DNA from: a virus
DNA length: 64,000 nt
Strand: one strand, 5' to 3'
Virus record (IMG/VR): IMGVR_UViG_3300007619_000129
Span: 1-64,000 of that record
Part shown: positions 11,151 to 59,600 of the stretch, piece by piece
How positions within the stretch are numbered: the stretch's first letter is position 1
Layout of the letters: each line of letters begins with the position of its first letter
The notes under the pieces: model-generated
The model's input: only the letters and a program-made list of their open reading frames with translations
Told to the model about the DNA's origin: nothing
Database searches by the model: none
Program-made: the position numbers and the translations under genes

Positions 11151-11156
11151 TTTTTC

Positions 11157-11230: not shown

Positions 11231-11239
11231 CAAGAATTT

Positions 11240-31465: not shown

Positions 31466-31954
31466 TTAATATTGCAAAATCCACTTATCGGCTTGGATAA
31501 CTAAAGCAATATCTTGAGCATCACTCGATGAATAGTCTAAATCGTTGAAATTAGCATCTTCGACCCAAGCTCCCCTTCCGTCCCACAGTTCTACAACATT
31601 GCCCATTGGATCAAGCAATTTCATTTGAATATTTCTTTTATAAAAATCGGCATAACCATCTCGTCCCGATACTGCTTCGCTTGTCAACCTTAGCCATTCC
31701 ATCAATTGTTGTGCTCCTGATGGTGAAATAGCATCATACATTGTTACTGATACTGTATCAAAACTCCTTTTTCCAGCGAGCCATCTTTTATCATTGATAT
31801 AATCAATTGTTATTTTTTCATGAGTAATATGTGGCCTTGCTGCTGTTTTCATCAAATAAGCATCAATTCCTTCAATTTGAAAAATCCATCGATATTTTCT
31901 TTTTGGCTCATATCGATTAGCCAACATATCAGTAACTCCAAGTGTTTCAACCAT
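31466..31954 (-). CDS. Tail tube protein (T4 gp19-like)
   Basis: YEPKRKYRW, RP, AGK, MYDAISPSGAQ, YKRNI..KLLDP.G.VVE.W; follows the sheath genes. Confidence 0.92.
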   Translation of the reverse strand: MVETLGVTDMLANRYEPKRKYRWIFQIEGIDAYLMKTAARPHITHEKITIDYINDKRWLAGKRSFDTVSVTMYDAISPSGAQQLMEWLRLTSEAVSGRDGYADFYKRNIQMKLLDPMGNVVELWDGRGAWVEDANFNDLDYSSSDAQDIALVIQADKWILQY

Positions 31955-35023: not shown

Positions 35024-38000
35024 TTACTCATTAAAAGTTACTCCGCTATCATCAATAACGAAATCAATTGAAATCTTTTCAGCTGTTCTTGTTGGAATTA
35101 GTTCAATTATTCCATTCATTTTATTAGCTTCTTCATCTTCTGCTGAATTATTTGAATCATTAGCAATGATATTAAATCCTTCAATTCCAGCCTGAAGTTG
35201 TACAAGAGACAATATCGGAGTAACAATAGAAACAAACCGATCTCTTTGTTCAGAAATTGGTTGTTCAAACACAAGTCTTCTTGCAGCATCACTAACGGTT
35301 CTTTTCACAGCAATTAGTAATCTTCTTACATTAACTCTGTCAAGTGCCGAAGCTGCTTGTTGTAATGTTCTTTGTCCAAAAATAACCTTTATCTGTGGTG
35401 GAAAATTAGCAATTGGATTAATCCGAGCATCATGTAAGGTTGCACGATCATCCTTTTTCAATCTAACATCAATACTTTCCACGAAATCAAGAGAACCACG
35501 ATTAAATCCTGCTGGAGCAAACCATGGGAATCCTACCTTATCATTGAAGGCAATAGCTCCCATAACCCCAACAGAAGGTGGAACTTTTACTGTTCTATTA
35601 TTTACTGAATCCGTGATTATTAGATCAGGAAAATAAGCAGCAGAATAATTGTTGTTTATTGCCCTTGAGTCAAATTGTTCTGCTGTTTTCTCCACATCTG
35701 GCTTATCACTACTAATGTCATAAAGCCTTGTAGTAGAATCGTCATAACCAGCAATATCCATAACATAAAATGCTAATCCATAATCCTTTGTAAGGTCTGC
35801 TACATAATCAGTAATAAAGCTATCTCTAATTCCAGGAATTGCTAATAATTGTACTCCAGGACCATTTCTCAAGTTAGCTGGACTTGTAAATGGATCTGTC
35901 ATTATTTTAGCAGCTGTTCTATAAGCTACAACAGAGTTGTTATTTTTACCGGTTCCGGCTGGATTATTAGACAATCCAGGCGCAGTAAATGCGCTAGCAG
36001 CTGAACCACCAGTGTCACTTGAAGACCCTTTGTCATTCATTCTTGCCGAATTCTTATCAAGAACATTAAGTCCATCCCATCCACCATACATCATATTGGT
36101 AAATTTATTATATGTAGTAAACTTATTGAATTTAGCTGAACCAGTTTCAGCCACTAATGTACCTAACGTTATTCTATTAGTAAGAACTCCGTCCGAAACA
36201 GAGCCAGAGAAATTTGGATTTCCATTTCTAATATAAGCCGCCTCTTTCATATGTGCCTGAGCGGTTCCAGTAATCTCAGAAACAGCAGCATTAGAAAATG
36301 CAACCCTTGCTAAGGTAAATTTATTTTCATTGAATGAATCGACTGTTGAGCCCGTGACAAGTACGTCTAACTTCTCAATACCAGCCAATTTAGCTAGTGA
36401 AGCAACTAATTTGTTTTGTTTCTTTGTTATATTTGGATTAAGTGGAGTAGTATTTCTTTCAAATTTAACTCCCCAATATAATCTACCATCAACCTCTTCT
36501 GATGAACCAGGATTACCAGCAAATCCACTAGTTGAAACTGAACCTCTTGTAACTTTAAATCTAAATGGTACTGGTGGAACAATTGAGCTTGTAAGCCCAA
36601 GTCCGCTTGATCCTACAATTCCAAGCCTTGAATCGCTTGAAGCCAAACTTCCAGTGTCAACATTATCTGGATTAGTTTTTAGAACACTAAGTCCCCTGAA
36701 ACCAAATGGTAAAGCTCTCGCTGGAACTTCCCTTCTTTCTACGGCTTCGTTCATTACAACTCGTACGATTCTTGATTTATTGGAGTATTTTCCTGTAATT
36801 TCAACCCGTCTATCATCTTCATCTTCAGCATCCCAAATATATTGAGCTTTTATGTCTCCAATTTTAGCAGCAACATAATCTTCTGATAATGGGTTTAAAT
36901 TACATCCTGTATATCTTTCAATAATTTCTGGAACTTGATCAGTATCGTCAAATCTACGAATAAGAACAGAAAAAGTTCCATATTCATTATTAGTTTCGTT
37001 TGACATTCTTACATCAGCAATTGAAACCTTCCACTTTTCATTGGTTTCTTCACCATCATCGAGAGCTTCGATGTAAAACAAATCAAATTCGGTATCACCA
37101 AAAGGTTGTGAAATAAAGTTTGTAGTTCTTGATGATCTGTATCTGGTATCAAAATGTCCATAAGCGTCTCTATATGGCATTGTGGTATTACCAGAAGAAT
37201 CAGAAGTGGCAGTAGAACCCGAAACTACCGCTACAGAAATTCCGTTTGTATCTACAGTAGCAATTTGGTTATCTACAGCAAAATCAGCATATAGTAAATG
37301 CTCTTTTGATGGAAAATTTTCTGGATTAGTATTAAGAATCTTTGAAATATAATTTGAACTATCAGGATCAAGGGATGCAGTTAAAACTGTTTGTTTAGCT
37401 GAAGACGAAACAATTAACTTAAATTCATTGTTTGACAATGAAGCTACATCATCAACATTTGATCCCAAGTTAGTTGGAGTGGCTTCATCTCCATTTAATA
37501 TCATTAGTCTTGTACCACTAGCAGTAAGAACTACTGCCCTTACAAGATTAACGAAATCCGAAGCTGAAGTGGCTACAAAACTATCATTATCAGTAAATAA
37601 GGGCATTCCAATTGCTTCATTTGTTGCCAAATCATGTCGAGCAACAATAAATTGGGTCGCACCCTGATGTCTTGGGTCTTGAGTATCAACAGTAGTTCCA
37701 GTAACTACAAAACCAGCATTTTTTACTTGTCCAGTTAGTCTAGTGTTGTTAATATCAGTAACAGTATCGTTTGCACCACCGCCCAATACTCTCATATATG
37801 TTACAGCGCTTTGGTGCTTAAGATATTCGTTTACAGCATATGGTCCTGCTTTTTTTGGATCAAGACCACCAAAAATTTGTTCAAAATCATTAGAAGAACC
37901 AACAATCATCGGAACAAAAGCTGGGCCTTGCTTAGCAGTGCCAATAATTCCGGCTGGGGTGCCTATGGGACCTGGAGTTGGTTGTACCAATACAATTTCT

Positions 38001-38041
38001 CGGTCTCGATATCCTGGCGCTCTAAAAGTTTGTTCAGCCAT
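35024..38041 (-). CDS. Tail sheath protein, paralog 1
   Basis: APGYRDREI, GPAFVP, GGWDG, AAYFPD, PWFAPAGFNRG, INPI, FGQRTL, DRVNVRRLL. Confidence 0.95.
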   Translation of the reverse strand: MAEQTFRAPGYRDREIVLVQPTPGPIGTPAGIIGTAKQGPAFVPMIVGSSNDFEQIFGGLDPKKAGPYAVNEYLKHQSAVTYMRVLGGGANDTVTDINNTRLTGQVKNAGFVVTGTTVDTQDPRHQGATQFIVARHDLATNEAIGMPLFTDNDSFVATSASDFVNLVRAVVLTASGTRLMILNGDEATPTNLGSNVDDVASLSNNEFKLIVSSSAKQTVLTASLDPDSSNYISKILNTNPENFPSKEHLLYADFAVDNQIATVDTNGISVAVVSGSTATSDSSGNTTMPYRDAYGHFDTRYRSSRTTNFISQPFGDTEFDLFYIEALDDGEETNEKWKVSIADVRMSNETNNEYGTFSVLIRRFDDTDQVPEIIERYTGCNLNPLSEDYVAAKIGDIKAQYIWDAEDEDDRRVEITGKYSNKSRIVRVVMNEAVERREVPARALPFGFRGLSVLKTNPDNVDTGSLASSDSRLGIVGSSGLGLTSSIVPPVPFRFKVTRGSVSTSGFAGNPGSSEEVDGRLYWGVKFERNTTPLNPNITKKQNKLVASLAKLAGIEKLDVLVTGSTVDSFNENKFTLARVAFSNAAVSEITGTAQAHMKEAAYIRNGNPNFSGSVSDGVLTNRITLGTLVAETGSAKFNKFTTYNKFTNMMYGGWDGLNVLDKNSARMNDKGSSSDTGGSAASAFTAPGLSNNPAGTGKNNNSVVAYRTAAKIMTDPFTSPANLRNGPGVQLLAIPGIRDSFITDYVADLTKDYGLAFYVMDIAGYDDSTTRLYDISSDKPDVEKTAEQFDSRAINNNYSAAYFPDLIITDSVNNRTVKVPPSVGVMGAIAFNDKVGFPWFAPAGFNRGSLDFVESIDVRLKKDDRATLHDARINPIANFPPQIKVIFGQRTLQQAASALDRVNVRRLLIAVKRTVSDAARRLVFEQPISEQRDRFVSIVTPILSLVQLQAGIEGFNIIANDSNNSAEDEEANKMNGIIELIPTRTAEKISIDFVIDDSGVTFNE

Positions 38042-43913: not shown

Positions 43914-45599
43914 TTATATTTCCTTTTTCTTCAAAATTAAAAATGGCTCCATTTTCATTAAGTTATCAGTTCCTACCTTTTTACTTAAGTGACTCTTACT
44001 AAATCTCATATAAAACGTATCAACATGTTTAAATCCTATCGAAATAGCTATTGATTTCATTGTATCTAATATTTCATAATTTTTATGTTTTTTGCATACA
44101 TTGAATATAAAAATACCATTATCATTTAGACAATTATAAATTTTTTTCACCGTATTGAACCAATACTCATTTATAAAGTATTCATAACCATTGTTATATG
44201 CTTGTTTTTTATCATTACTATAAACTTCTTTTGAAAAATATGGCGGAGAACTCATTGCCAAATCAACATTTTCAATGGGGTTGAAATTCTCTGACCTTTC
44301 CTCTATTAAAGATGCATTTTTCAATCCAAAATCTTCAATAATTTTTTTTCCATTATTTATTGTGGTTTCCCACGGATCTACTCCAATATATTTAATATTT
44401 CCACAAGACATTGCACCCAAAAGTCTTTGATTAAATCCTGAAGAAAAATCATAAACACTTCCGCCATTCGGTAAGAATTTTTTATATATAAATTTTGCAA
44501 CAGTAGGTCTAAAATTAGACGTAACTGGAACTAATCTCATACTTCTAAATCCTTGTCTTAACATATTCCCCGTCATTGTAAATGGATGAGAAACTCCTCT
44601 ATAATAAAAGGTTATTCCCAATCTATTTTTTATTACTTTCATTAATGTTTCATCATCATTAAATGCCTCAACCATACTTCTTGATTTTTTATTATCCTCT
44701 TTAACAAAAAAGAAATGTGGAGAATAAGTTTTAAAAATAAGGTTTCCTATTGTTGAACCAGAACTTATAATTTTCTTTTCTTTGTCAAATATTGATTCAA
44801 CATCAAAATTACACAACTTTTCCCAATCCTTATCTAATTCCTCTTTTGTATAGACCGGAAAGGGAAAATATCTAGATCGAAAATAATCAAATAAAAACTC
44901 AGCAACCTCTTCTTTTTTATTTTCACTCATTTCAAATATGTTTTTAACAGTAAGAGGAATGTTTTTATATCTGATTATATAATCAGTACCATATCTTGAT
45001 AAATCATTATTGTTTCTTGTAAATTTAGTTTCTTTTTTATTCCTTTTTAAAATACTTTCTGTGTTTGCCCTCACACTTTTCTTTTTTTTTGTTATTATCA
45101 TAGGCATTTTTAGTGCATTTTTATCAAAAAATTCTACTTTTTTGCCTTCCTCCATAAACAAAATCAACTCCATTGTATAAGTGGCATGTGTTTCCTCTTT
45201 AATAAAATTAAAACCATATTTCTTATAAAATTTTATTGCTATTTCATTAATTTTTGCTACTCTAAGACGAATATTTCTTTTTTCTTTTTTTGCTTTGTCA
45301 ATTAGGGCACTTAAAAGTTTTGAGCCAACACCTTTCCCGCGCACCGCGGAATCAATCGCCATTTTTTCAAGTAAAAAATATGGTTCCTTTTTATATCTTT
45401 TCCAAATCAAATAACCCACTATATTATCATTTTCACTAATAGCATAAATAACCCTGTCTTCATTTGTTCTTTTTACAATAGAAGAACGATATATTGGTCC
45501 CATTATTTTTTGCTTTGTATACGGTTTTGTCAAGTCAATTATTTTTTGAACCGTTTGATCGTTTTTAACATTGATTTTCTCTGAAATGTCAAAATCCAT
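43914..45599 (-). CDS. GNAT acetyltransferase fused to an amino-DNA methyltransferase
   Basis: N-terminal AIDSAVRGKGVGSKLL...NEIAIKFYKKYGF; C-terminal NFRPTVAK, YDFSSGFNQRLLG, SSPPYF..EVY. Confidence 0.85.
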   Translation of the reverse strand: MDFDISEKINVKNDQTVQKIIDLTKPYTKQKIMGPIYRSSIVKRTNEDRVIYAISENDNIVGYLIWKRYKKEPYFLLEKMAIDSAVRGKGVGSKLLSALIDKAKKEKRNIRLRVAKINEIAIKFYKKYGFNFIKEETHATYTMELILFMEEGKKVEFFDKNALKMPMIITKKKKSVRANTESILKRNKKETKFTRNNNDLSRYGTDYIIRYKNIPLTVKNIFEMSENKKEEVAEFLFDYFRSRYFPFPVYTKEELDKDWEKLCNFDVESIFDKEKKIISSGSTIGNLIFKTYSPHFFFVKEDNKKSRSMVEAFNDDETLMKVIKNRLGITFYYRGVSHPFTMTGNMLRQGFRSMRLVPVTSNFRPTVAKFIYKKFLPNGGSVYDFSSGFNQRLLGAMSCGNIKYIGVDPWETTINNGKKIIEDFGLKNASLIEERSENFNPIENVDLAMSSPPYFSKEVYSNDKKQAYNNGYEYFINEYWFNTVKKIYNCLNDNGIFIFNVCKKHKNYEILDTMKSIAISIGFKHVDTFYMRFSKSHLSKKVGTDNLMKMEPFLILKKKEI

Positions 45600-45651
45600 A
45601 TTTCTATATTACCACAATTTCCCCATACTTTACAAACAAAAAGTTTTAATT

Positions 45652-46071
45652 CTACCTAACTTTAACGTACCAATTTTGTTGTTTTGATGTTTTTTTCTTA
45701 TGACAATTAGCACACAATATTTGACACTTACTTATTTCTTTTAAAACCCTTTCCCAGCACCACTTTCCAATTGCCCACGAAATATTAACTTCCTTATCAA
45801 ATAAATGATCAAATTCAAGACATACTGGATCAGACTCTCCACAAATTACACATGGGTGTTTCAAAAGATATTGATATAATAGTTTTTTTCTTTTGTTAGC
45901 ACTATTTGTAGCATAATTTATATAATATTGTTTATTATTATTATAATATTTTTTCCTTAATTTCTTAGAACAATCTTTGCACCTATGAGAATATCCATCT
46001 TTTGATGATCTGTCCTTATAAAAATTATTCATCGTTTTTATATTTTTACATTTACTACAACTTTTGTCCAT
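45652..46071 (-). CDS. HNH endonuclease
   Basis: Zn ribbon CSKC...CKDC; CVICGE...LEFDH...KCQILCANCH. Confidence 0.88.
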   Translation of the reverse strand: MDKSCSKCKNIKTMNNFYKDRSSKDGYSHRCKDCSKKLRKKYYNNNKQYYINYATNSANKRKKLLYQYLLKHPCVICGESDPVCLEFDHLFDKEVNISWAIGKWCWERVLKEISKCQILCANCHKKKTSKQQNWYVKVR

Positions 46072-46076
46072 AATTT

Positions 46077-47531
46077 TTATATTTTCTTTTCATAAAGATA
46101 ATTTCCACACCCATATATCCTATATACACCATTTTCTTCCGCAACTTGCTTTTCTGTTTTTCCTGGTTGGGCTCGAAACATAAATCTATTATATCTTATT
46201 GTACCATCTGTATACCAAAAATCTATACCAGTATCTGAAACCCATTCAAATCCACAAGACCTATACACATTGCCGTCTCCCCACCTCAAATCAGAATATG
46301 TTATTATTTTTTTATATCCCTTATCACTCATCCACTTCTCCACACTTTTCATTAATTTACTAAATCCACCTATTACCTGGACATTTAAGGCTGTTGCGAA
46401 TCTTGATATTTCAATATTGTTTTTATATTTCTTATGGTTTGGCTTTCTAAGGGCTATTGCACAAACTAATTTATTCTCATAATAAAGTCCGAAACTTATT
46501 TTAGATCTTGTATAACCCGATATATGATTCTCTTCAAAAAATAGTTTAGAAATTTTTCTATGAATTTCTCTTATTTCACATTTTCTTGCACCAATTTTTA
46601 TATCGGTTAACCCTAATTTGTTTTTTATAATTGATTTTACTATTTCGTTCTTCTCAATCCATTCATCAGAAAATATCTGAATAAGATTTATTTTTTTCTG
46701 TCTGCACAACAACATTTTATCTCTATGAGAATTTTTGTCCCAATACTTGTTTTTATTATTATTATTTTCCATATGCCAATAAAGTCCGTGATATTCAATT
46801 CCAACCATTTTATCTGGAATAAAAACATCAATTTCTTTAGGGGCAATTGATTTTCTATCACTTTGTATTGTTTTTATGCCTAATGACTTTATAAAATCTA
46901 ATACCTCCACTTCAGCCCTGGAGGTTATACAAGGATAACATTTAATACACAAAGACTTTCTCTCAAACGCTTGTAAAGTTTTTCTTTGTTCTGTACCACA
47001 CTTTTTGCAAATAATATCAAGATATTGATGTTGTCTTGAATAATATTCACTATATTTTGTTTTAACTTCAAATTCTAAACCCCTTTCCAAAAGCCTTAAT
47101 TTATACTCTTCCTCACTAAGAGACTTCTTTTTCTTAATCTTATTAATAGATTCAGGAGTATGTTTTTTCCCATAAAATCCATTTTTCTCACCATAATGAA
47201 CGTGCTTTAATATTCTTGGATCGGTTTCTTTAGTTTTGTTTTTATTCCACGCTTCAGCTTTTCCACCAATCTTGCCACCTTCTGATGACGCCTTACAAGA
47301 ATGTTCCTTACAATATTTTTTATATGTGAATCTAATATATCTTGTTTCTCTTATGCAAGACCTTTCAGCACATATCGGTCTTTTGCCATTATAAAAATAT
47401 TTGTTTGTATATTCTAATGATGATATTTTGTGTTTCCTAAGGTGATAAGAAAATTCTTTCAAATCATTAAAAATAACATTACAGATATTACAAATTATTG
47501 GTGGTTTTCTTCCTTGATATTTTATAGTCAT
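46077..47531 (-). CDS. Hef-like homing endonuclease (C2H2 finger, NUMOD3, Vsr-like nuclease, C-terminal GNAT/Mom-like domain)
   Basis: CNIC...HLRKH, NGFYGKKHT, EIDVF...IEYHGLYWH, ARKCEI...NHISG...SRFA...GGFSKL...TYSDLRW..G..Y...GF. Confidence 0.8.
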   Translation of the reverse strand: MTIKYQGRKPPIICNICNVIFNDLKEFSYHLRKHKISSLEYTNKYFYNGKRPICAERSCIRETRYIRFTYKKYCKEHSCKASSEGGKIGGKAEAWNKNKTKETDPRILKHVHYGEKNGFYGKKHTPESINKIKKKKSLSEEEYKLRLLERGLEFEVKTKYSEYYSRQHQYLDIICKKCGTEQRKTLQAFERKSLCIKCYPCITSRAEVEVLDFIKSLGIKTIQSDRKSIAPKEIDVFIPDKMVGIEYHGLYWHMENNNNKNKYWDKNSHRDKMLLCRQKKINLIQIFSDEWIEKNEIVKSIIKNKLGLTDIKIGARKCEIREIHRKISKLFFEENHISGYTRSKISFGLYYENKLVCAIALRKPNHKKYKNNIEISRFATALNVQVIGGFSKLMKSVEKWMSDKGYKKIITYSDLRWGDGNVYRSCGFEWVSDTGIDFWYTDGTIRYNRFMFRAQPGKTEKQVAEENGVYRIYGCGNYLYEKKI

Positions 47532-47732: not shown

Positions 47733-49625
47733 TTAGATAGTATTCATGTCAAGAACAGTAACTGTTCCATAAAAATCGCTTCTTACCATCTTCTTACCAT
47801 ATCTCGTCATGACACCTTTGCGTGGCGTGAAATCTTCTGGTCCAAAGATTGTTGGGGTAACGATAAGTGGTACATATGGTGCATACACATATCCAGTTTC
47901 AAGATATGTTCCACCTTTGTATCCAAGTAGAACCTTATTTCGTGGGAAATATGGATCTTTATAGACCTGGAATCGTTGAGTTAGTGAACCAACTCTTTCG
48001 GCTCCGATTGAGAATGGAGTTGCTACTTGACCATTACCATCAAGGTTATAATTACTTCGGTATAGAGTGGTCTGTTCAAGGATTGTACAGACATCTGGTG
48101 AAGTTACAACAAAGTTGGCTGAACCACGAAGTGTTTTTCTGTGAATAGTGTTAGCAGCATCAATAATGGTCTCAACAAGAGTCTCGTACCATTCTCTAAC
48201 TGTACCAGTGAATGCTGGACCTGGATCAAGAGTGCTGGTTAGCTGTACTAGTGAACCATTTTCTTTGTTCACAAACTTACCCGGCGATCTACTCCAATAT
48301 AGGTTAGCTCCATTAGCTTCTGTTAGAAGATCATTAAGAATTTCTCTATCAATATCAACAGCAACCTGTTCAGATAGAATCTTAGTTAGCTCAACCTCAG
48401 CATCAAGACTGTGGAAAGCATTAAGATCCTGAGCAAGCTCTGGAGACCATCGAGCTCGTAGCTTTCGTGAAGTGGCTACAACGCTGATCTGTTCAATCTT
48501 AATGTCAATTTCAGGGATTGTTGGGGTTGGAGTCGCACCGAAGTCAGACTCAAAGCTTGGAATAACAAGAGTGTCACCATCAGTTCCACCAATATTATTC
48601 ACGTCAGACTTTACCATGCTTACGTGGATATTGTCTGAACCAATCTGTGGTACAGTTCCACCATTAGAAAGTCGTAGAACAAACTTAATGTGATCACCAC
48701 CAAGTGGGTCTGGTGTCCAAGTTGAACCGTCCCAATCTCCTCTCTCGTTTAGTCGACGAAGATTTAGAACTCCAGCACCAGCCTGATATTTCTCTCCCCA
48801 AGCAACAGCTCCCTGTACAGATGGAAGATCTGTAATGGTAATTTGCTTGACTTCCTGTAGATCGCCATTACTGATTTTGCTTGTAAGCTCAGCAGTACTG
48901 ATGAAAAGGAAAGTAAGATCAAGAACGTTGTCTTCAAGATCTCTCTGAATATCAGGGTCAAAGCCAGCCAAGCGAGCATTGGTACCTGTAAAGTCAGAGG
49001 AAGTATCAACAACTGAAGCTGATGTGAAGGCTTCGCTTGCGCCAGTGAAGGCACCAAGTCCAAGACCATCGCCAGCTACTGAACCAGTACCTACGGTTAG
49101 AGAACCGCTGTGTACTTTAGTATATCCAGTACCAACCAAGTCATATTGTCCACCTGTTGCAAGTGAACCTGAACGGACACCAGCACCAGCTGGATTGTTA
49201 TAAATTGACTGACCGGCTTGGTATGTATTGTCAGTAGCTGATGCTTCACCACCTACATTGTTACCATAAGTGTAATCAAGGTAGAAAAGTAATCCAGCTG
49301 GAAGACTCATTGGCTGAATTGACACAAGATCATTAGCCACTAGCCCACCGAATACTCGACGTACAATTGGGAACGCAACATTTGTAAAACCTCGGATATT
49401 GCCAGAAGATGTTAGGGCTCCTGCTCCGGTTGATAGGGATGAAGTCTCTCGAAGTAGCTCAGCAGCTTGGTTTTCAAGCAATCGAGCCATATTTTCTCGG
49501 TCATATCCCCCAAGATTTTTTAGTAGACCAGTTCTGGCCCATTTTTCAACAAGACGACGAGACTCCGCACCAACGTGCCGTTCTCTAATGTCTTCTGTTA
49601 ATTTCTCTAGTGAAAACTTACTCAT
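47733..49625 (-). CDS. Major capsid protein (T4 gp23 family)
   Basis: LLENQ, FPIVRRVF, VSIQPM..P.GL.FYL, RKLRARWSPELAQDL.A.H, IDREIL, GYVYAPYVPL, PRKGVMTRY. Confidence 0.97.
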   Translation of the reverse strand: MSKFSLEKLTEDIRERHVGAESRRLVEKWARTGLLKNLGGYDRENMARLLENQAAELLRETSSLSTGAGALTSSGNIRGFTNVAFPIVRRVFGGLVANDLVSIQPMSLPAGLLFYLDYTYGNNVGGEASATDNTYQAGQSIYNNPAGAGVRSGSLATGGQYDLVGTGYTKVHSGSLTVGTGSVAGDGLGLGAFTGASEAFTSASVVDTSSDFTGTNARLAGFDPDIQRDLEDNVLDLTFLFISTAELTSKISNGDLQEVKQITITDLPSVQGAVAWGEKYQAGAGVLNLRRLNERGDWDGSTWTPDPLGGDHIKFVLRLSNGGTVPQIGSDNIHVSMVKSDVNNIGGTDGDTLVIPSFESDFGATPTPTIPEIDIKIEQISVVATSRKLRARWSPELAQDLNAFHSLDAEVELTKILSEQVAVDIDREILNDLLTEANGANLYWSRSPGKFVNKENGSLVQLTSTLDPGPAFTGTVREWYETLVETIIDAANTIHRKTLRGSANFVVTSPDVCTILEQTTLYRSNYNLDGNGQVATPFSIGAERVGSLTQRFQVYKDPYFPRNKVLLGYKGGTYLETGYVYAPYVPLIVTPTIFGPEDFTPRKGVMTRYGKKMVRSDFYGTVTVLDMNTI

Positions 49626-49678: not shown

Positions 49679-51823
49679 TTATGCATCAAAAGCGAGTTTT
49701 TGCCAGCGCTGTACTTCAGGACTGACTGACTCATTGAGTGTTTTTTCAGACGAAGCGCCTGATTTGGTTGGTTTAGATGAAGACCCTCGAACATTTCCTT
49801 CACGAAGCTTTTTCTTTCCCTTATTGCTAAGTGCTTCGGTAAGTGCCTTATAGATCTTTCGTACTTCCTTCAACGACTCAGCTCCATCGATTGCATCAAT
49901 AACTTTCATGCGCATTTTCGGAGTAAGACTCTCGTTCTGGAGTAATTTGTTAGCGTGAACAATTTTTTCATTGAAAAGAGATTGCTCTGCTAGTTCTTTT
50001 CGTAGCTTGGCAGTATATTTTTTAAATTTGCCAATTGTTTCTTTAAGTTCACGATTCATGCGTGCACTTTCTTTTAATTTCTTTGTAAGGTTTTCTGTAG
50101 TAACATCAGCGTCAGATGTATCTCTAAAGGGTTCTTTCCAAACGTCTCCGCCACCATACTGGTCAGCTTTTGGATCGGTCATCTTGTCACTAACGTCATA
50201 AGCCTCATTTTTGGCTTTTCCTTTCATTCTCTTAAGTTCTCTTCGTAGAGCAGCTTCAGAAATCTCATAAACTTCACCTTCGCTAAGACCATCTTCTGAT
50301 TCCTTAACTTCCTCCCCGTCCATTTCCTCGTCTTCCATTTCGTCAAGTTCGTCAAGCTCGTCAAGCTCAGATAGTTCTTCTGATTCAGAAACTTCCTCTG
50401 ATTCGCTTGTATTTTCAGCTTCAGACATTTCGTCCTCTGATTCGGCCATTGATTCTAATTCTGCTACAATTTCATTAACATCCATTTCTTCTTCTCCGTC
50501 TTCATCATCAAGATCAAGATCAAGTTCTCCGCCTTCACTACCACCTTCAAGATCTTCACCGGCGTCGGCATCTTCGGCAGCAGCTTGGACGTCTACATTT
50601 ATTCCAGAAACATCAAGTCCTTCCTCGTCATCTCCTGGTAAATCAACTTGAAGTTCAGCATCCATTTCTCCATAAAGTCCTTCAACTTCTGGTTCACCTT
50701 CGTCTGTGTCTAAGTCTAAATCTAATTCTTCTCCGCCCATCTCGTCTCCCATTGGCTCGTCCATTGGATCTTCCATTGGAAGTTCCATTGGAAGTTCTTC
50801 TCCACTCATCCCCATCCCATCATCAACTGCTGGCTTAACTTCAACGTCAAGCTCTCCCAAATCTGTTTCGTCTGGAAGTCCCTTGAGTAGCAGGGTAAAG
50901 TCAGCTTCGCTTAATATATTTCTTGCCATTTTGTGTAGCTCCCTGTATAAGTTACTTATGTTGTTACAAACCCTTTTTACGTCTTGTGTTTCATTAATTT
51001 TTGATAATGACTTGGTAAATTTGAACAATTTCACTGATTCTCCAAGCATTCTTCCCAATGTTAAGGAAAGCTCTTTTGAAGATTCTTTTACCAAATTATC
51101 GCCTGATGCTTTGATTAGACGATTTATACCAATAGTTCTTTTCCCCAAATTAACGAAACCCTCTTCAATAACAGAAAGTCTCGCCGGTACATATAATTTG
51201 TTAATTTCTCTATAAATTGACTCAAGTTTTTTCTCTACAATTTCACAAGTTTCAGAAGAAATTTTATCTTCACCCTTTGATTCTTGTAGTTTTTTATACA
51301 ACTTTTCAGTTTCAACCTTAAATTGTCTTATTTTTTCTGAATATTTTACACTTTCTGAAATCAAACCTTTGTTTTTCTTAATTTTTGACAATTTATCAGA
51401 AAGCTCTAATACTCTTATTCCATAATAATCTGCTTCTGAATTAGCAATATCAACCAATGCCCTTAAGGATTCTGTCGTAAGCTCAACTGTTTCACCAGTA
51501 TCTTTAGTTACATTTACAACGGGACTATCAGCACGGACATCATCAACATCTAAAGTAACTTTTCCACTAGAGTCAGGAACATTCATTGGTAATGGTGGAC
51601 CGTCCCCTGAAAGAGTGTTCAACGCATCAATATCAGACATAACATCCTGCAATACATTTTTTTCATCCTCTTCTGAATCAGACGATTCTTCCATAAGAGT
51701 TTGTTCAATTAACCTCTTTACAGTAGGCGTAATTGACTTAATAATTGCATTTTTAGCATTGTTTGTTGCTACTTCTCTAAGTTGTTTGGCTTCTGCTAGC
51801 GCTTCCTTATGCAATAATGACAA
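49679..51823 (-). CDS. Prohead scaffold / core protein (gp22-like)
   Basis: EALAEAKQLREVA..NAK N-terminus, very acidic middle, LFNEK...NKL and C-terminal RWQKLA; immediately upstream of MCP. Confidence 0.85.
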   Translation of the reverse strand: MSLLHKEALAEAKQLREVATNNAKNAIIKSITPTVKRLIEQTLMEESSDSEEDEKNVLQDVMSDIDALNTLSGDGPPLPMNVPDSSGKVTLDVDDVRADSPVVNVTKDTGETVELTTESLRALVDIANSEADYYGIRVLELSDKLSKIKKNKGLISESVKYSEKIRQFKVETEKLYKKLQESKGEDKISSETCEIVEKKLESIYREINKLYVPARLSVIEEGFVNLGKRTIGINRLIKASGDNLVKESSKELSLTLGRMLGESVKLFKFTKSLSKINETQDVKRVCNNISNLYRELHKMARNILSEADFTLLLKGLPDETDLGELDVEVKPAVDDGMGMSGEELPMELPMEDPMDEPMGDEMGGEELDLDLDTDEGEPEVEGLYGEMDAELQVDLPGDDEEGLDVSGINVDVQAAAEDADAGEDLEGGSEGGELDLDLDDEDGEEEMDVNEIVAELESMAESEDEMSEAENTSESEEVSESEELSELDELDELDEMEDEEMDGEEVKESEDGLSEGEVYEISEAALRRELKRMKGKAKNEAYDVSDKMTDPKADQYGGGDVWKEPFRDTSDADVTTENLTKKLKESARMNRELKETIGKFKKYTAKLRKELAEQSLFNEKIVHANKLLQNESLTPKMRMKVIDAIDGAESLKEVRKIYKALTEALSNKGKKKLREGNVRGSSSKPTKSGASSEKTLNESVSPEVQRWQKLAFDA
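50340..50800. repeat. Short coding tandem repeats in the scaffold gene
   Basis: 9-bp unit (LDE repeats) near 50340-50368 and 12-bp TTCCATTGGAAG x2 (ELPM) near 50771-50797. Confidence 0.7.
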
Positions 51824-51884
51824 CTTAAATCTCCCTTATTCCTTACGAATAACTATTTCCCTAAAACTAAAAAAACTAACCACA

Positions 51885-52094
51885 TCATTTAGTGAATGTT
51901 TTTATTGAAAACGACGTATTGTCTTGTGTAGTAAAATCTTCTAATTCTTCTTCAGTCCATATGTAATCCCATGGTTTGCAACAAAATAAATCTTCTTTCT
52001 GTTCATTACTTTTTTTAGATAAATGTTTTTTGAGAAAGGACTCAAGCCTTTCTTCTCTAACTATTTTTCTTAATTTTACTGGACTTAATTTCAC
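51885..52094 (-). CDS. Small hypothetical protein, possibly head-packaged
   Basis: MKLSPVKLRKIVREE; late motif upstream. Confidence 0.6.
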   Translation of the reverse strand: MKLSPVKLRKIVREERLESFLKKHLSKKSNEQKEDLFCCKPWDYIWTEEELEDFTTQDNTSFSIKTFTK

Positions 52095-52146
52095 AAACGA
52101 CCTTTCTTTTTATAAATAGCGCCGTAAAAATCAAAACATTAATAAA

Positions 52147-52560
52147 TTATAAAACTAAAGAAGCATCATGTACTCTCATTTTTACCTTTATTGTAATTGA
52201 TACATCCTCTAACTCATAGAGATTACCAAAATCTACTTCATATAAATCAACAATCATTTCCCACTTTTCAAGAACATCTCCATTTTCTGATAATAATCTT
52301 ATTGATGCCTTTCTTTTTTTATTAGTTTTAATAATTTCAATAACCTGTTTCGAACCACTAGGATCCACTGAGTCATACATCACAAAGCAAATATCACAAA
52401 TTTCCCAATTTCCATTATTTTGTTTTATAAATCTTGGTCGAGATGTCCTACAAATTAAGTCTGAATCAATACCGTCAACAGAAAGAGTCCACCTAAAAGC
52501 TTTTTTAAGTTCATATTTTTTTTCAATTTCTTTTTCTTCCATTTCAAAAATACATATCAA
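52147..52560 (-). CDS. Truncated tail-tube paralog
   Basis: Aligns with 31466-31954: YExK..RW...GID......RP, MYD...PSG..Q, KR....LL...G.V.E.W. Confidence 0.75.
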   Translation of the reverse strand: MICIFEMEEKEIEKKYELKKAFRWTLSVDGIDSDLICRTSRPRFIKQNNGNWEICDICFVMYDSVDPSGSKQVIEIIKTNKKRKASIRLLSENGDVLEKWEMIVDLYEVDFGNLYELEDVSITIKVKMRVHDASLVL

Positions 52561-52563
52561 AAA

Positions 52564-53208
52564 TTATTTTCTTATTTCTTTATTTATCCTGGACTTTATA
52601 ATCTTTGAAAGTTCAGATTCTGTTATCTTAATTTTTGCTTCTTGAAAGTCAAAATATTGAACTGGGTTATCCAAATCATCTTCATCAACATCACCTTCGT
52701 ATGAATCCCACTGATCTTCGTCTCTTACCATTACAGACTTCAAAGTATAAGCAGGCTTTCTTCTTTTTGGTCTAACCGGATATTTTGGTGGTGTTGCTCC
52801 GGGCCAGGCATCATGACCCAAGCTATCGGGCTCAGAGGAAGCGCTACGCAATCTAAAAATATCTTCCAGTACAAGACCTACTATTTTTTTATAAGTCTCT
52901 GAAACGCCTCTGGTGCTCCCGTCAACGTAATGAAAGCGATCCCTAACCCACATACCGGCAGGATCGGAAGGAATTTTGGCATTTCCTACTTTATTTGAAA
53001 ATTTATTGATGCCATCCAAACCATCAAGTCCCAATTCTTCCGGATCCCAATCGTATGCCTCTTCCTCTGGTGGTTCCCACCCATATGGAAAATCATCATG
53101 AGCTTTACCTAATTTGTCATGTCTTGTTTTTGTTGTTCCATAGCCATGTCCAGTATCGTCATCTGGATTAAGCATATGAAAAAGATGTTCTTCAATTAGG
53201 GCTTTCAC
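52564..53208 (-). CDS. Hypothetical head-module protein
   Basis: DTGHGYG; C-terminal KITESELSKII; late motif upstream. Confidence 0.7.
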   Translation of the reverse strand: MKALIEEHLFHMLNPDDDTGHGYGTTKTRHDKLGKAHDDFPYGWEPPEEEAYDWDPEELGLDGLDGINKFSNKVGNAKIPSDPAGMWVRDRFHYVDGSTRGVSETYKKIVGLVLEDIFRLRSASSEPDSLGHDAWPGATPPKYPVRPKRRKPAYTLKSVMVRDEDQWDSYEGDVDEDDLDNPVQYFDFQEAKIKITESELSKIIKSRINKEIRK

Positions 53209-53349
53209 TATTTGTAATTATGGCTCTTTTTTTATTTCCATTGATAATAAACAGAATTTTAACACCCCAAGATTCATTTACCTCTGTTACATCAATGTCT
53301 ATAATTTTTATTTCACGATTGAACTTTTCTAAAGTATATTCTTGCATTC

Positions 53350-53390
53350 AAAAAAAAAGACAGCATATTTTTACTAATACTGCCTTTTCA
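53350..53390 (-). terminator. Probable intrinsic terminator
   Basis: Minus strand GGCAGTAT...ATGCTGTC stem (with G-U pairs) followed by T9. Confidence 0.55.
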
Positions 53391-53429
53391 ACCCCGTCTT
53401 TTGGGCTATCTGATACGCAAACTCACTTA

Positions 53430-53816
53430 TTATACTGGAGAAGAAGATCCCTTAATAAGTTCTCCAATTTTTTGTCTTGAAATTCTTTCCGCCCCTTCCT
53501 TGGGATCATCTGTTGAGCCCGCTCCAGATGGTTCATATTCTGGCTTTGGCTCCACCTGATCTTCTGGGTTGTCTGAACCAGGACCTGGAGAGCTTGTATT
53601 TGGATACATGTCCCCTAACTCAAGGCTAGGTGATTCATTATAATCTAAATCCACAGGCCCAGTCTGATCATTTTCTGTAACAACACCATCTACCAAAATA
53701 CTTGAATCTGGCTCATAATCCTCAGTTGGACTAGCAGGATACATAGCTACCATTCGAGCCGTATCTGATCTACCCAATCCTCTTTGAGTTTTTTTTACTC
53801 TCTTATTAAGTGCCAT
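53430..53816 (-). CDS. Hypothetical Pro/Gly/acidic head-module protein
   Basis: 128 aa, YPNTSSPGPGS motif. Confidence 0.7.
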   Translation of the reverse strand: MALNKRVKKTQRGLGRSDTARMVAMYPASPTEDYEPDSSILVDGVVTENDQTGPVDLDYNESPSLELGDMYPNTSSPGPGSDNPEDQVEPKPEYEPSGAGSTDDPKEGAERISRQKIGELIKGSSSPV

Positions 53817-53824
53817 TTATTTAT

Positions 53825-54211
53825 TTATTTCCCTTGCTTTTTTGGTGTTTTTGGCTTTGGATCATTATTAAGTTTGCGTGTAGTCGAAACCTCTGAAATC
53901 AATTTCCGTAAATGTACTCTTTTATTACGTGCTTCTGCCATTTTTACAGCATATGATTTCATTTTCTTTTCAAAAGCCTTTTCTTCAGCCATTAACTTTT
54001 CATCAACTTTCTTTGCAGCTTCTTTTACCTTAGCAGCCTTTTCCCAATCAACACTTTGCTCAAGAGTTTCAGCATATTCATCAGCTTCTACCTCTTTAGT
54101 TTTATTAGTTTCTGCATTAATCTCTTTTTCATATTGCTTAACGTGTTCATAAATCTTTTTTTCTAGTTGTTTAACAGAAAGTTTCATTTTTAAAATTCTC
54201 CTTGCCTCCAA
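53825..54211 (-). CDS. Hypothetical prohead core-like protein (likely start MKLSVKQL)
   Basis: Charged coiled coil; EVEADEYAETLE. Confidence 0.7.
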   Translation of the reverse strand: MEARRILKMKLSVKQLEKKIYEHVKQYEKEINAETNKTKEVEADEYAETLEQSVDWEKAAKVKEAAKKVDEKLMAEEKAFEKKMKSYAVKMAEARNKRVHLRKLISEVSTTRKLNNDPKPKTPKKQGK

Positions 54212-54246
54212 TTGGCATAATCTAAAGTTAAGTATGTTTGTATTTG

Positions 54247-54771
54247 TTATTGTTCATCAAAAAAAGCAACAGTAGCCCAATGACTATCACCATCTATATC
54301 TGCACCCGAACCAATTGAGGCAACTCCTGCTGAATTCATTAAATTACTTTGGGGAATTGGGGCATTTCCATAAGCACCACCATACCCATCAAAACCTTCT
54401 TGTACATAACCCCCTTCACCTCCACCAGGGACTGAAAGCATCTCCATTGGTCTTGCACTCATTTCTCCCTTAGAGTTTTGATCTTCCATTGTTGATTTTG
54501 CTGAAAGTATCATCTCAGTCATTGTTGGTGGACTAATATGATTATGTTGCCTATGAATCGGCTGTCTACCTGCTATATTGGGATTTTTTACATTTCCCTT
54601 TTGCATTAGTGAGTTTAAAGATCTTTTATTGTTTCTTACCATTTGTTGAGTGGAACCTTTATTAATAGCAGAAGACATCATTTTCCTTTGGTTTGTCTCG
54701 CTTAAAAGAACTTCTCCAAAAATTTCAAGAAGACATTCTTTCACTATTGCTTTAAATTCTGATCTTTTCAT
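54247..54771 (-). CDS. Hypothetical head-module protein
   Basis: MKRSEFKAIVKECLLEI; C-terminal WATVAF resembling the scaffold end WQKLAF. Confidence 0.7.
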   Translation of the reverse strand: MKRSEFKAIVKECLLEIFGEVLLSETNQRKMMSSAINKGSTQQMVRNNKRSLNSLMQKGNVKNPNIAGRQPIHRQHNHISPPTMTEMILSAKSTMEDQNSKGEMSARPMEMLSVPGGGEGGYVQEGFDGYGGAYGNAPIPQSNLMNSAGVASIGSGADIDGDSHWATVAFFDEQ

Positions 54772-54776
54772 AAAAA

Positions 54777-55193
54777 TTATCCAATATTTGGAACAAATTG
54801 ATAATTTGAACCAGTTGTTCCCTGTAAAGAAGTAGAACCACTAATGTCAGGAAATGCATTTCTACTAATATTAGTTAATCCAGCAAGAAAATCAAATGTC
54901 GTTGAACCGTCCTCTGGCAATAAGTAAACATCTCTAACTCTCAAGTCAAAATCCATAATAGTACCAGTTGGAACAGTCATAAAATTACTTCCTGTCACAC
55001 CATTAAGGGTAAACCCAACCCTAAGATCTGAAGCCCCTAAATTTCTAACTGAAAAATATTTGCAAATATGACTCAACTCCATTTTTTTAGTTTCATTAAG
55101 AGAAATTGAAACAGAACCAGTTACCCACGGAACTCCTGGCACATGATATGCCGTGAACCAATTCATTCCACTATTTGGCCATTGTAAAGTCAT
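54777..55193 (-). CDS. Putative structural (decoration-type beta) protein
   Basis: AYHVPGVPWVTGS...LRVGF...AGLT; in head module. Confidence 0.55.
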   Translation of the reverse strand: MTLQWPNSGMNWFTAYHVPGVPWVTGSVSISLNETKKMELSHICKYFSVRNLGASDLRVGFTLNGVTGSNFMTVPTGTIMDFDLRVRDVYLLPEDGSTTFDFLAGLTNISRNAFPDISGSTSLQGTTGSNYQFVPNIG

Positions 55194-55196
55194 ATA

Positions 55197-55853
55197 TTAT
55201 TTCCCCCACGATAGAATGTCATTTGCAATTCTATCTATTCTGTCAGATTTTGTAAAAACTTTGTTAAGATATTCATCAATGCCTTCTGTCAAATAAACAA
55301 AAGCACCTGGAGTAGAAGGTTCAGAAACAACATCCCAACAAACAAGTTGAAAGTCTTCCTGAACAACCTGATATCCGTTTGAGTCAGATTGTGTTGAACC
55401 AACCCCCCTTGAAGATATTCCTACAGTTATATTTTGTTTAATAAGTCCTTTTAACTCTTTACCGTTTGTAGTATGATTTAAAATCTCTAAACGTCCCCTA
55501 ATAATACCTTTGTTGTCCATCTCTGCCTCAACAATAACATGAGAAGCAGTTTTCAATTCAATTATTGAGTTGTCAGTATGGTCTAGTGCACCAAGTGCCC
55601 TTCTTTCTCTTATTAATTTTTGATAATTTCTTAGTTCTTTCTCCAGAATATCTCTTGGATAAATTCTTCCATTTTGATTTAGGGTATCTGCTCTTTGTAA
55701 AATTCCCTCTAGAAACATTACCTCTTCACCGTTCACCTGTTCCACAATTACTTTTTTGTCCTCTAAAGTACATCCCTCAATCAAAACACCTCTCTCTATT
55801 GGAGCAAAAGAAAGGTTAGACGAAACTGTATTAATTGTCTTTATTAACGACAT
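55197..55853 (-). CDS. Prohead maturation protease (gp21 family)
   Basis: NQNGRIYP, GALDH, ASH, GISSRGVGS, WDVVSEPSTPGA. Confidence 0.95.
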   Translation of the reverse strand: MSLIKTINTVSSNLSFAPIERGVLIEGCTLEDKKVIVEQVNGEEVMFLEGILQRADTLNQNGRIYPRDILEKELRNYQKLIRERRALGALDHTDNSIIELKTASHVIVEAEMDNKGIIRGRLEILNHTTNGKELKGLIKQNITVGISSRGVGSTQSDSNGYQVVQEDFQLVCWDVVSEPSTPGAFVYLTEGIDEYLNKVFTKSDRIDRIANDILSWGK

Positions 55854-56681: not shown

Positions 56682-59600
56682 TTATTCTTCCTCTTTTTCC
56701 TCTTTTATAATGTGATCTAACTCATTTTCCACAATCAGATCATCTAATTTTTTTTCTCCCTCTTCTTCAAAAATTATCTCAATATCATCAACATCTCTAC
56801 TTTCTGATTCCTTAAGAATATTCCTCTTATTAATATTTAGGTCCTTTTTCATTGAATTAAGAGCTTTTTTAATTTCTTTAGTCATTCGTGCCTGCTGAAA
56901 CATCATCTTATCTAAGACATCCCTATTCGTTCTAGCATTAATTTCGTGAAAAGGCCCCTCTGCTTCAAACCTTTCATCATTAGCATCATAAGAATCACTC
57001 TCAAGAGAATTCATTCTTGACAAATCAGGCATAGAAGTAGCATACGGACCCTTACCATGCTTTAGTCTTTTTCTGTTGTATTGAACTCTTTGTGATTGAC
57101 TTATTGGATTTCTTTTTACAGGAACTTTTTCCTCTTCGCTTTCATCCAAATCAAATTCATCATCTTCTTCTTCAATGTCTAACATTAATGATTTTTTATT
57201 TTTTTCTTCTCCAGCGAAAAGGTCTTCTTCTTCCTCTTCTTCCCCTCCCTCTTCTTCTCCACCACCTGGACCTTCTTCACCGCCTAATCCCCCTAATCCA
57301 CCTTCTTCTTCACCACCAATTTCTTCTTCTCCACTCCCAAGAGCCTCTAATCCTGGACCTCCACCACCACCAAGTCCTCCACCCCCAAGTCCTCCACCAC
57401 CGCCTTCTCCACCAAGTGCTCCAGGTTCAGTAATTTGATCAAGGATTGCTTGTCTTTGTAGATCTTTTATCTGTTCTTCTTCTACTTTTTTAATTTCTTC
57501 TTTGGTTAAGTTAAAAACTTCACGATAAACATATCCATTTGATAACAAATTCTCAGGCTTTGATTGTGCAATCTCAAATCTACGACCAACAAGCTCCAAT
57601 TTTTGTTGTTGTGCTGTATTAGACGGATTAGATAAAGCAATTTTAAAATCAATTAAATCTTCTTCATCATATCCGTTAGCTGCTAAGTGAATTGCTGCTA
57701 TTTTATTTAATTCTGAAATTATAACTTTCTGAATAGCTTGTATAGCACGCGAGAATCTAACGTCCTCCTGAGCTAAATTCGCCTTCGAACTGTTATGAAC
57801 AATGTTTCCAGAAGAAGTGGCAAAATTATGCCATCTTTTAACGGTCAAATCATAAACCTCAATTGGAAATTTTAAATTAATGTCTCTAACACTTATAACC
57901 TTATGGTTATTTGGGGTTTTTTCTTTAAGTTTTGGAATTAAAATTTCTTTTTTAAAATCTCTCCACCCACTAAAACCATTTTCCTTTAATAAAGTTTTTA
58001 CATGTCGTAATCCAACTGGTGGAACTAAATCAAATCTTCCATCTCTATACTTGAATACGTCTCTATGAGTAAGATCATTTTCTACGCAGTAACCAATTAA
58101 CCAATCATAAGTGTAAGTTTTATACTTCCTCTTACTATGATGATTTTCTCCAAAAATTTTAGCCCTAACTTCAGGTCTTTGAAGTATTTCTTTATTTTGT
58201 TTAGTTTTAATTTTTCTATATTCAGAATCTTCCCAATTTTTCTTCATAACTTCAGACATAACATCTGAAATCTCATCTCCATGAATCCATTCATATAGTG
58301 GCCTACCAGGAGTTGTGGTTTCATATTTCATTTGCTTTGAAGACATTTCCTTATGATCTTCAGAACTAAGCCATTTTCTGTGAGCCTTTATACTTTTTTC
58401 TTCAACCCGAATATTCCTTAATAAATCATGACATTTCTCGCTATTAGCCCATAAAAGCTGATTTTTTCTTCTTCGCTCTTCTATTTCAGGATTGCCCATA
58501 ATATGAGTCATAAAATGGTTGGCATGATATTCAAAGTGTTCTTTCTTCCCCATTTCAACTAATAAATCAGGATTATTATTTCTTTTATTAAAAGAAGAAT
58601 GATGAATAACTCTATCATTCAAGGGCAATTTATAATTTTGTGTTGATTCAAAAACTAATTTATGGGTATAAATCCATTTTCCGTCTTGGAGAATTTGTTC
58701 ATAACCTTCAATTTTATCTCCTTTTTCTTTAGAAGAAATTTTTCTATAAAGTGGCATCAAAGACTCTCCAACCATAATCTCATCTGCCCTTTTATATTGC
58801 CCATTTCTTAATAAAAATGGATGATTTTCTGTACACAATATTTTTTCACCATTATCTAAAACAACTTCAGTTAATTTATTAACTGTTTTTGTTGGTCCTG
58901 CCCATTCAATTTCACCTGGTTTTATATTTCCCTGTAAATCAGATGAATAAACCCAATTTTTAATTCCATTTCTATATTCTTCAGAGATTTCTTTAATTGA
59001 CAATTCTCTACCGTCTAATAATGGAATTTTAGTGTCGGGATGTAAACAAAGCTGTTCATCAAATCCAATATATGCTTTTGGAACTTTAAGAGCAGCAAAT
59101 AACTTTTTCTGAATATATTCAACATCATCAATAGCAGTAGTGTTTGTACCACCGGGTAATGTGTCAATTCTTGTACCTCCTTCAGTACCTCGAATAGGAA
59201 TAAAATAATCAATATCTACTGACCAAGGATTATAACGAAGGTCTACTCGACCGGTATCTTTATCAATAACTTCTTGTGACTTAAGCTGTGTTCTTGCATT
59301 CTCAATGACATTTGGAACATCATCTGGCGGAATTCCAGCAACATCAATATAGAAAACTCTTCTTTCTGGAGCTCTGATAACCCTATAAACAAGCATTGCA
59401 TCTTCAATAAGAATAAGTTGTCTCCAAATTCTTCTAGCCGATTCCAAAATAGAAGAACCATAAGGTAAAAATGCATCATTCCCTTGTAATCTAAAGTGTG
59501 CAACTTGCCAATTTTGAAGAACTTGGTTTCCCACAGTTACCCACCTAAATCTTACGGACATTGGATCGTTTGGATCCCAACCCTCTTCTCTTTCTATCTC

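Follow-up and report, generated by a model that had tools for sequence, protein, structure and literature searches.

Why would a phage that already encodes a tail tube carry a second, smaller tube-like gene among its head genes? The question is raised by a 64,000-nucleotide (nt) stretch of viral DNA (the window; positions 1 to 64,000 of IMG/VR virus record IMGVR_UViG_3300007619_000129), which is part of an 88,566-base record with a CheckV completeness of 26%. Its tail-tube gene, at 31466-31954 (-), where (-) marks the minus strand, has a short relative at 52147-52560 (-). The product of the latter, here called the short paralog, has 137 amino acids (aa; P0001) when translated from the TTG at 52560 and 131 aa (P0003) when translated from the ATG at 52542; the frame is intact and open from either start, and the 131-aa protein is the recorded form.

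A preliminary description of this DNA, made from its letters alone, had claimed that the protein aligns with the tube and that it has two deletions, of about 12 and 13 aa. Both claims hold. The BLASTP alignment of the short paralog with the 162-aa tube (P0002) has an E of 8e-15, 26% identity and 25 gap columns, which fall in two places. The stretch that runs from the RP-motif Pro to the YD-motif Asp has, in a 76-row alignment, 20 residues in the short paralog versus 32 in the tube, and the stretch from the PS-motif Pro to a conserved Gly has 26 versus 39 residues, for net deletions of 12 and 13 residues. When a family profile was run on the whole record, exactly two open reading frames (ORFs) matched, the short paralog and the tube (E 2.4e-46 and 5.8e-45). 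The homology of P0001 to tubes is visible only through the phage's own tube and this custom profile: Pfam and PHROG scans of P0001 returned no match to PF06841 or phrog_4542 at E up to 1, while the tube itself matches phrog_4542 at 3.2e-31 and PF06841 at 4.5e-5, the latter below the cut-off. Four residues that are invariant over a 28-row alignment (P42, P67, G94 and W100) are present in the short paralog. Other consensus positions have changed: the Pro of the EPKR motif is Leu, the Trp after the PS motif is missing, and the N-terminal segment has diverged and is without a motif kept in long tubes and in many short forms. The ORF at 52147-52560 is thus confirmed as an intact paralog of the phage's own tail tube, and it is about equally distant from that tube and from foreign ones (24-30% identity).

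The fold predicted for the short paralog is that of a tube. An AlphaFold2 model built from a 75-row alignment has a predicted local distance difference test score (pLDDT) of 93.6 and aligns with T4 gp19 (5w5f) at a VIA-align Z of 13.0, with a root-mean-square deviation of 2.4 over 126 aligned residues; the preliminary description had held that its proposal would fail if there were no gp19 fold, and in the model the fold is present. Similar values were obtained for the tube of Klebsiella phage KP1 (Z 13.3), for Afp, Pvc and other injection-system tubes (12.5-13.2) and for a 175-residue chain of the T4 portal-neck-tail entry 9mkb, whose protein identity is unchecked (12.7). Hcp proteins score slightly lower (10-11; Bacteroidota Hcp1, 6bdc, 123 aa, 11.3). 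Foldseek reached the Afp and Pvc tubes at E about 1e-5, and an Atlas structure search gave TM scores, by query, of 0.90-0.91 to clusters of 161-163-aa tubes. Afp5 was also among the best profile and fold matches, although the match of the family profile to it (6rao_F) is weak (E 0.027). These comparisons point to a beta-sandwich with one flanking helix. Since tubes and the 9mkb chain score alike, the fold does not separate a tube from a terminator or an initiator.

More can be learned from what is missing. In the model of the tube (P0002, pLDDT 78.4), the first deletion corresponds to most of the hairpin E43-51/E56-65, in place of which the short paralog has strands 38-40 and 46-48. The second corresponds to tube residues 92-106, which follow the helix 78-91 and have no counterpart in the short paralog. 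Both segments contain residues that are invariant in 34 long tubes of the clade. On the models, the short paralog lacks the beta2-beta3 hairpin and the alpha-loop. The beta2-beta3 loop makes the largest contact between the rings of a tube; when it is deleted, T5 and SPP1 form no tubes and YSD1 forms hexameric rings (PMC8718954). The alpha-loop links three elements in AFP and PVC, namely the sheath, the N-loop and the beta2-beta3 loop, and it is found in all contractile tubes outside type VI secretion systems (T6SS), whose tubes have neither an N-loop nor an alpha-loop (PMC8718954). The six-fold ring itself is made by the tube core's inner beta-sheet (PMC8718954). The suggestion in the preliminary description that the lost loops mediate contacts between subunits and stacked rings therefore agrees with published tubes, in which the two deletions would remove the main inter-ring contact and the bridge to the sheath. 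With the hairpin and the alpha-loop absent and the N-terminal motif changed, the stacking and sheath-contact elements of the short paralog would be gone or altered, while the ring-forming core is kept.

This anatomy is not peculiar to one phage. With an exhaustive phmmer search, we obtained 76 cluster representatives at E up to 1e-3, all of 114-208 aa except P0070 (438 aa, repetitive), which we set aside. Both segments are short in 71 of the remaining 75 homologs, with medians of 20 and 26 residues, the same as in P0003; the four that depart from this pattern are P0028, P0050, P0059 and P0061. We define the short tube subfamily by two short loop segments, retained core motifs and a length of about 115-210 aa, a definition that P0003 fits. 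Look-alikes of 137-145 aa also form clusters in the ESM Atlas, of 51-58 members each. Judged by these sequence searches, short tubes are a widespread family that comprises 75 or more clusters at 50% identity, and we propose that they are a distinct subfamily split from the 162-aa tubes of an uncultured T4-like clade.

We built a tree from 76 short, 17 long and 6 cultured-phage rows, omitting P0001 (identical to P0003), P0070, P0079, P0080 and the alternate A5 long forms. The long tubes group tightly in a single clade (support 96), and the short and long forms of the environmental clade split together from the tubes of cultured relatives (support 98). Short-form branches are long (median 0.73, versus 0.06-0.37 for true tubes), with an end branch of 1.09 for the window protein. 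The short forms were not resolved as a single clade (2 changes), and they may or may not share one origin. Within the family, the motif of the beta2-beta3 hairpin of true tubes recurs at another site in four of the 75 short forms (P0008, P0009, P0028 and P0027), as though it had been relocated: in three it lies in the C-terminal part, ahead of the last strand, and in the fourth it belongs to an N-terminal extension. One subclade (L068 6538-7068, L176 2407-2901, P0054, P0047 and P0032) has an N-terminal leader of about 25-30 residues that is basic and hydrophobic and could be a membrane-seeking helix; its Kyte-Doolittle maxima over 17 residues are 0.8-1.5 in the three proteins scored. The window protein has no such leader.

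Could the short paralog simply be a passenger, a horizontally acquired, tube-derived gene that drifts in a hyperplastic region without any function? Its end branch of 1.09, the loss of the EPKR Pro and of the Trp after the PS motif, the want of a ribosome-binding site and its uniqueness among the 80 related head modules described below would all fit such a history. Selection could be estimated for L068 and L230, the sole pair of short forms with DNA, which belongs to another subclade: 16 of 176 residues have changed, and the ratio of nonsynonymous to synonymous substitution rates (dN/dS) is 0.24, compared with 0.043 for TerL and 0.009 for the portal of the same pair and 0.009-0.18 for neighbouring core genes. 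The short-form gene of this pair is thus under purifying selection, looser than that on core genes. The preliminary description had asked whether homologs keep the same deletions under purifying selection; 71 of the 75 do keep both, and this one pair is so constrained. Because 71 of the 75 distant homologs lack both pieces and the pair has a dN/dS of 0.24, neutral decay is unlikely. The window protein itself has an intact frame, a confidently predicted fold and all four invariant residues, and we consider a functionless passenger quite unlikely.

The position of the gene tells us more about what kind of gene it is. As the preliminary description had it, the gene lies inside the head cluster, and the tube gene is about 20 kb away (20.2 kb as measured). 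A protease gene is upstream of it, and a scaffold-like protein and the capsid gene are downstream. The gp21-type prohead protease at 55197-55853 (-) (PF03420, 1.7e-25) forms the upstream border of a variable interval. Next to the short paralog lies a 214-aa gene at 52564-53208 (-), whose stop codon precedes the TTG by 1 nt and the ATG by 21 nt. On the other side follow a 69-aa ORF with a GTG start at 51885-52094 (-), a 714-aa acidic protein at 49679-51823 (-) and, directly after it, the gp23-type major capsid protein of 630 aa at 47733-49625 (-) (PF07068, 6.6e-75). The 714-aa protein is called a putative scaffold here by position and composition, as it has no family match.

For comparison, we fetched 80 related head modules with the capsid protein (60-74% identity), 47 of which span the region from protease to scaffold. 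The 714-aa protein has homologs in 78 of the 80 loci and the 214-aa protein in five, and no tube-family ORF occurs in any of the 80. In two relatives with 68% capsid identity (L097 and L099), a gap of 44 nt separates the end of the 214-aa gene's homolog from the scaffold-like gene, and in a third with 73% (L096) the same two open frames are also adjacent. Neither the short paralog nor the 69-aa ORF, which is without a family match, has a homolog in the 80 loci. The two share an inserted segment of about 740 bp at 51824-52563 (-), made up of the short paralog, a 52-nt spacer, the 69-aa ORF and a 61-nt spacer, which we see in this phage only; its ends are approximate, as the DNA junctions relative to L097 and L099 are too diverged for exact placement. 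The interval from protease to scaffold (51823-55197) measures 3,374 nt here and 1,185 to 7,342 nt across the 47 relatives, and most of its small genes are common to only 1-8 of the 80 loci, with one at 54777-55193 found in 36. The interval is therefore a variable hot spot and not a conserved position, and the short paralog is an accessory insertion between two head genes that are adjacent in L096, L097 and L099. The preliminary description had overlooked this accessory character, along with the large family to which the short paralog belongs.

Cultured relatives and long uncultured records give a similar picture. A single tube-family match each was found in the complete cultured genomes of immuto, Mel-JY01 and RM378 and in the 484-kb record LR756508, while LR756511 has three, two of which are adjacent long-type paralogs beside a gp15-like gene. 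A tblastn search of INPHARED with P0001 gave no match at E up to 0.01, and no cultured carrier of a short form was found; the same search with P0007 returned seven records, all of them long tubes of immuto, Mel-JY01, RM378 and LR756508. A word-index protein search with P0001 found only the query itself, and one with the profile A4 found 114 proteins, mostly 162-aa long forms and none informatively named. The top 10 homologs of the short paralog come from Logan or ENA assemblies, P0006 on a 209-kb contig and P0009 on one of 375 kb.

Scans of contigs mostly recovered long forms: 79 of 80 loci in a first scan of viral contigs, 82 of 85 in the genome and metagenome scans together, with the genome-contig scan alone giving five loci, all long forms on contigs of metagenome-assembled genomes. 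A scan with the subclade alignment A8 gave 80 loci whose match spans, by span alone, all fit long forms. Short forms could be placed in five contexts (the window, L068/L230, L176, L315 and L316), all outside tail modules. In L068 and its near-twin L230, the short gene lies upstream of a 161-aa gene, TerL and the portal, and in L068 it is directly preceded by a GIY-YIG endonuclease gene (5973-6521) that is missing in the otherwise 92-94% identical L230. In L176, it stands between a gene for a 613-aa enzyme and a series consisting of a zinc-ribbon ORF, an HNH-like ORF (named from its sequence by eye), a 177-aa ORF and TerL. In L315, a gp4-like head-closure gene precedes it, as does a 687-aa HNH/methyltransferase-like gene. 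Homing-endonuclease-like genes thus adjoin short forms in three of the five contexts. No recognised sheath or baseplate gene was found near the short forms in these contexts, two of which are short contigs (3.4 and 5.9 kb) and one of which, L316, has unannotated neighbours. The L068 short form matches phrog_4542 at 3.2e-5.

These contexts bear on the possibility that the short paralog is a regular structural part of the tail, namely a gp3-like terminator or a gp48/gp54- or Afp5-like initiator that is encoded among head genes. T4 tube-fold paralogs fill such roles (PMC8718954; PMC12929629), and the likeness to the 9mkb chain, the Afp5 profile match and an orientation shared with late genes would all be in keeping with one of them. 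An essential part would be conserved, and the absence of the gene from the 80 related head modules and from complete cultured genomes argues against it. So do the five contexts, with the limits just given, and the want of any PHROG or Pfam tail-family match. In a record that is 26% complete, the phage's own terminator and initiator lie outside the scope of our evidence. More generally, absence from kin, the hot spot, fast evolution and nearby endonuclease genes mark the short paralog as accessory and weigh against a fixed structural role, which we think unlikely. Known rings of this kind differ in the same respect: T4 gp48/gp54 and Afp5/Pvc5, initiators or adaptors of contractile systems, are rings with the tube fold that each tail uses once, at its baseplate end, but they are conserved and lie in tail or baseplate clusters.

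How strongly is the gene expressed? We found no Shine-Dalgarno-like motif before either the TTG or the ATG, whereas AGGA- or GGAG-type motifs precede the capsid, tube, portal and protease genes and both sheath genes. The short paralog is co-oriented with the late structural genes and has no promoter of its own. The simplest reading of these sequence features is a low output, by coupling to the upstream late gene. A promoter-like 8-mer upstream of the 69-aa ORF was dropped, as it has only two occurrences on the minus strand.

An accessory character leaves room for roles in conflict, such as poisoning the tails of rivals or decoying sensors of tubes. As a decoy, the short paralog would be a tube look-alike that occupies host sensors of tail-tube proteins and takes no part in tail assembly. 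Tube proteins are described as triggers of defence systems (DSR2, PMC11850899, and a STAND-sensor preprint). The sporadic distribution, the hot spot of 1.2 to 7.3 kb in 47 relatives, the long branches and variable N-terminal extensions of the family, and the endonuclease-like genes in three of five contexts would suit a gene of this kind. However, the gene sits in a late structural operon without a promoter or ribosome-binding site of its own, and counter-defence genes are usually early. A protein without loops may also escape a sensor that reads the loops. A decoy thus seems to us improbable.

The reading that we prefer, with a probability of about 40%, is that the accessory short tube is a one-sided, low-copy ring that docks on a tube end without propagating. 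The retained beta-sandwich and helix core would assemble into a hexameric ring through the inner sheet. Such a ring would have no loops to offer but could take up those of an exposed tube ring, and once on the tube it would neither extend it nor hold the sheath. It may thus act late in infection as a low-copy cap or adaptor on tube ends, either of the phage's own tube or of the tube of a co-infecting relative.

By analogy, the closest precedent for capping by a tube-like paralog is T4 gp3. Like the short paralog, gp3 is a tube paralog with the beta-sandwich-plus-helix fold and low identity to its tube (about 22% to gp19, compared with 26% here), and one terminal hexamer of it ends tube growth (PMC12929629). 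Unlike the short paralog, which is absent from relatives and lies in an interval of the head module, gp3 is an essential, conserved tail gene whose loops grip gp15 and gp19. The short paralog, at 131-137 aa, is also shorter than gp3 (176 aa), and it has no sequence-family match to any terminator. A second parallel is provided by mutants of YSD1, T5 pb6 and SPP1 gp17.1 in which loss of the beta2-beta3 loop gives rings or stops tubes (PMC8718954). The short paralog resembles a natural version of them; the mutants are laboratory constructs of unrelated siphophage tubes, whereas the short form is natural, widespread and conserved.

A two-chain complex prediction of the phage's own tube with the short paralog gave a score of 0.54, with 0.00 for the best of three controls, for a verdict of weak support. 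The mark used in this test is reached by 58 of 80 solved complexes and by 2 of 110 mismatched pairs; at scores of 0.60 or under, it is reached by seven of the 80 solved complexes and by both of the passing mismatches. Between runs, at least 96% of the contacts recur, and the partner has a pLDDT of 79 or more.

Several observations weigh against a capping ring. Tube-tube complexes have already been solved, so the pass in the complex test may be a memory of the fold. Kin do without the short paralog, as seen in the 80 head modules and in the single tube-family matches of immuto, Mel-JY01, RM378 and LR756508. If made while the phage is assembling its own tails, a cap could poison them, and own and foreign tubes are alike in their distance from the short paralog. 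Small tubes without the loops can still polymerise, as Bacteroidota Hcp1 (Z 11.3) does. The four members with relocated hairpin motifs and the subclade with hydrophobic leaders point to other roles. Finally, the L068/L230 short-form gene evolves faster than its core neighbours (dN/dS 0.24 versus 0.009-0.18).

Alternatively, the short paralog could be a weapon, a poison subunit that caps the tubes of co-infecting relatives and to which the phage's own tube is resistant. The loop-less anatomy serves this idea as well as it serves a cap, and an accessory, scattered gene that evolves fast in one pair would be in line with it, as would the end branch of the phage's own tube, the longest among the 17 long forms in the tree (0.37). 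Blocking of tail assembly is known as a defence: Tab of Pseudomonas prophages, a functional analogy that we draw by description only, blocks the tail assembly of other phages; it is prophage-derived and prophage-expressed, is reported to target the tape measure and is paired with an anti-Tab (PMC10884400), and its mode of action may differ. The equal identity of the short paralog to own and foreign tubes gives no sign of specificity, and we regard a weapon as very unlikely.

It is tempting to speculate more widely that short tubes are mobile minimal-ring mimics, spread among large T4-like phages by way of hyperplastic regions, which cap the tubes of rivals or blind host tube sensors, with sub-lineages re-tooled by relocated hairpins or membrane-seeking leaders. 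We find this broader picture doubtful. Whichever role applies, the known tube-fold paralogs are fixed tail parts (terminators, initiators and neck proteins), and short tubes are instead scattered, accessory, loop-deleted genes; none of the papers in the literature listings that we searched concerns loop-less tube paralogs with genes outside tail modules. If they do cap tubes, they would offer a natural handle on the starting and stopping of tube growth and a possible case of interference between phages by structural mimicry. If they are decoys, they would bear on how bacteria sense conserved virion proteins.

The short paralog also stands apart from the two kinds of true tube that it most resembles. 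With gp19-type tubes (PF06841, phrog_4542) it shares common descent, through the 162-aa tubes, as well as core motifs and fold, but it has no direct match to these families, no beta2-beta3 loop, no alpha-loop, no place next to the sheath and no strong ribosome-binding site. With T6SS Hcp, as exemplified by Flavobacterium johnsoniae Hcp1 (6bdc), it shares a minimal tube fold of about 120-140 residues and a missing alpha-loop; in contrast to Hcp, which polymerises inside a sheath, it descends from phage tubes and lies in a T4-like head module.

The remaining genes fit a phage of this kind. The record has a GC content of about 32% and nearly all of its genes on the minus strand, and its sequence indicates that the source is a distant T4-type myophage, with a portal that has HNH-type inserts, a large terminase, two sheath paralogs, the tube and a T4-type baseplate hub gene. 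By the capsid protein, the closest named phages are Flavobacterium phage immuto (42%), Rhodothermus phage RM378 (39%) and Microcystis phage Mel-JY01 (31%), and two uncultured huge-phage records are also among the nearest relatives. Among the sequencing runs listed for the window, none was of RNA; one DNA run, which may be the source sample, covers it in full, and another has a share of 0.07. They gave a single contig, identical to the window and with neither joints nor variants.

The tube gene follows two adjacent sheath paralogs of 1005 and 988 aa (35024-38041 and 32017-34983, both (-); 31% identical) and precedes the hub gene, an arrangement of long tubes that we saw in 10 of 10 loci checked. 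We had considered whether the two sheath paralogs match two tubes, and rejected this, since the sheath pair is kept in 10 of 10 relatives that have one tube. A third sheath-like ORF follows the tube in L029 and L079. Between tube and hub gene lies a 125-aa ORF at 31030-31407 (-), for which none of the 10 related tube loci that we checked has a homolog; it may be another lineage-specific insertion.

The gp20-type portal is encoded by a 1926-aa ORF at 56682-62462 (-), which matches phrog_213 (5.6e-55) in two stretches; its interruptions of the HNH-endonuclease type look like in-frame inteins. The 69-aa ORF begins with an amphipathic segment that ends in Glu. Directly after the capsid gene, at 43914-47531 (-), come genes for a Mom-like/HNH-family protein (484 aa), an HNH endonuclease (139 aa) and a GNAT-methyltransferase fusion (561 aa), for which homologs were found in 15, none and one of the 80 relatives, respectively. 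In a 595-kb uncultured phage (L175; LR756511.1 455000-477000), the two adjacent long-type tube paralogs, of 266 and 227 aa (10071-10871 and 10934-11617, both (-)), both match phrog_4542 and directly follow the gene for a gp15-like sheath stabiliser.

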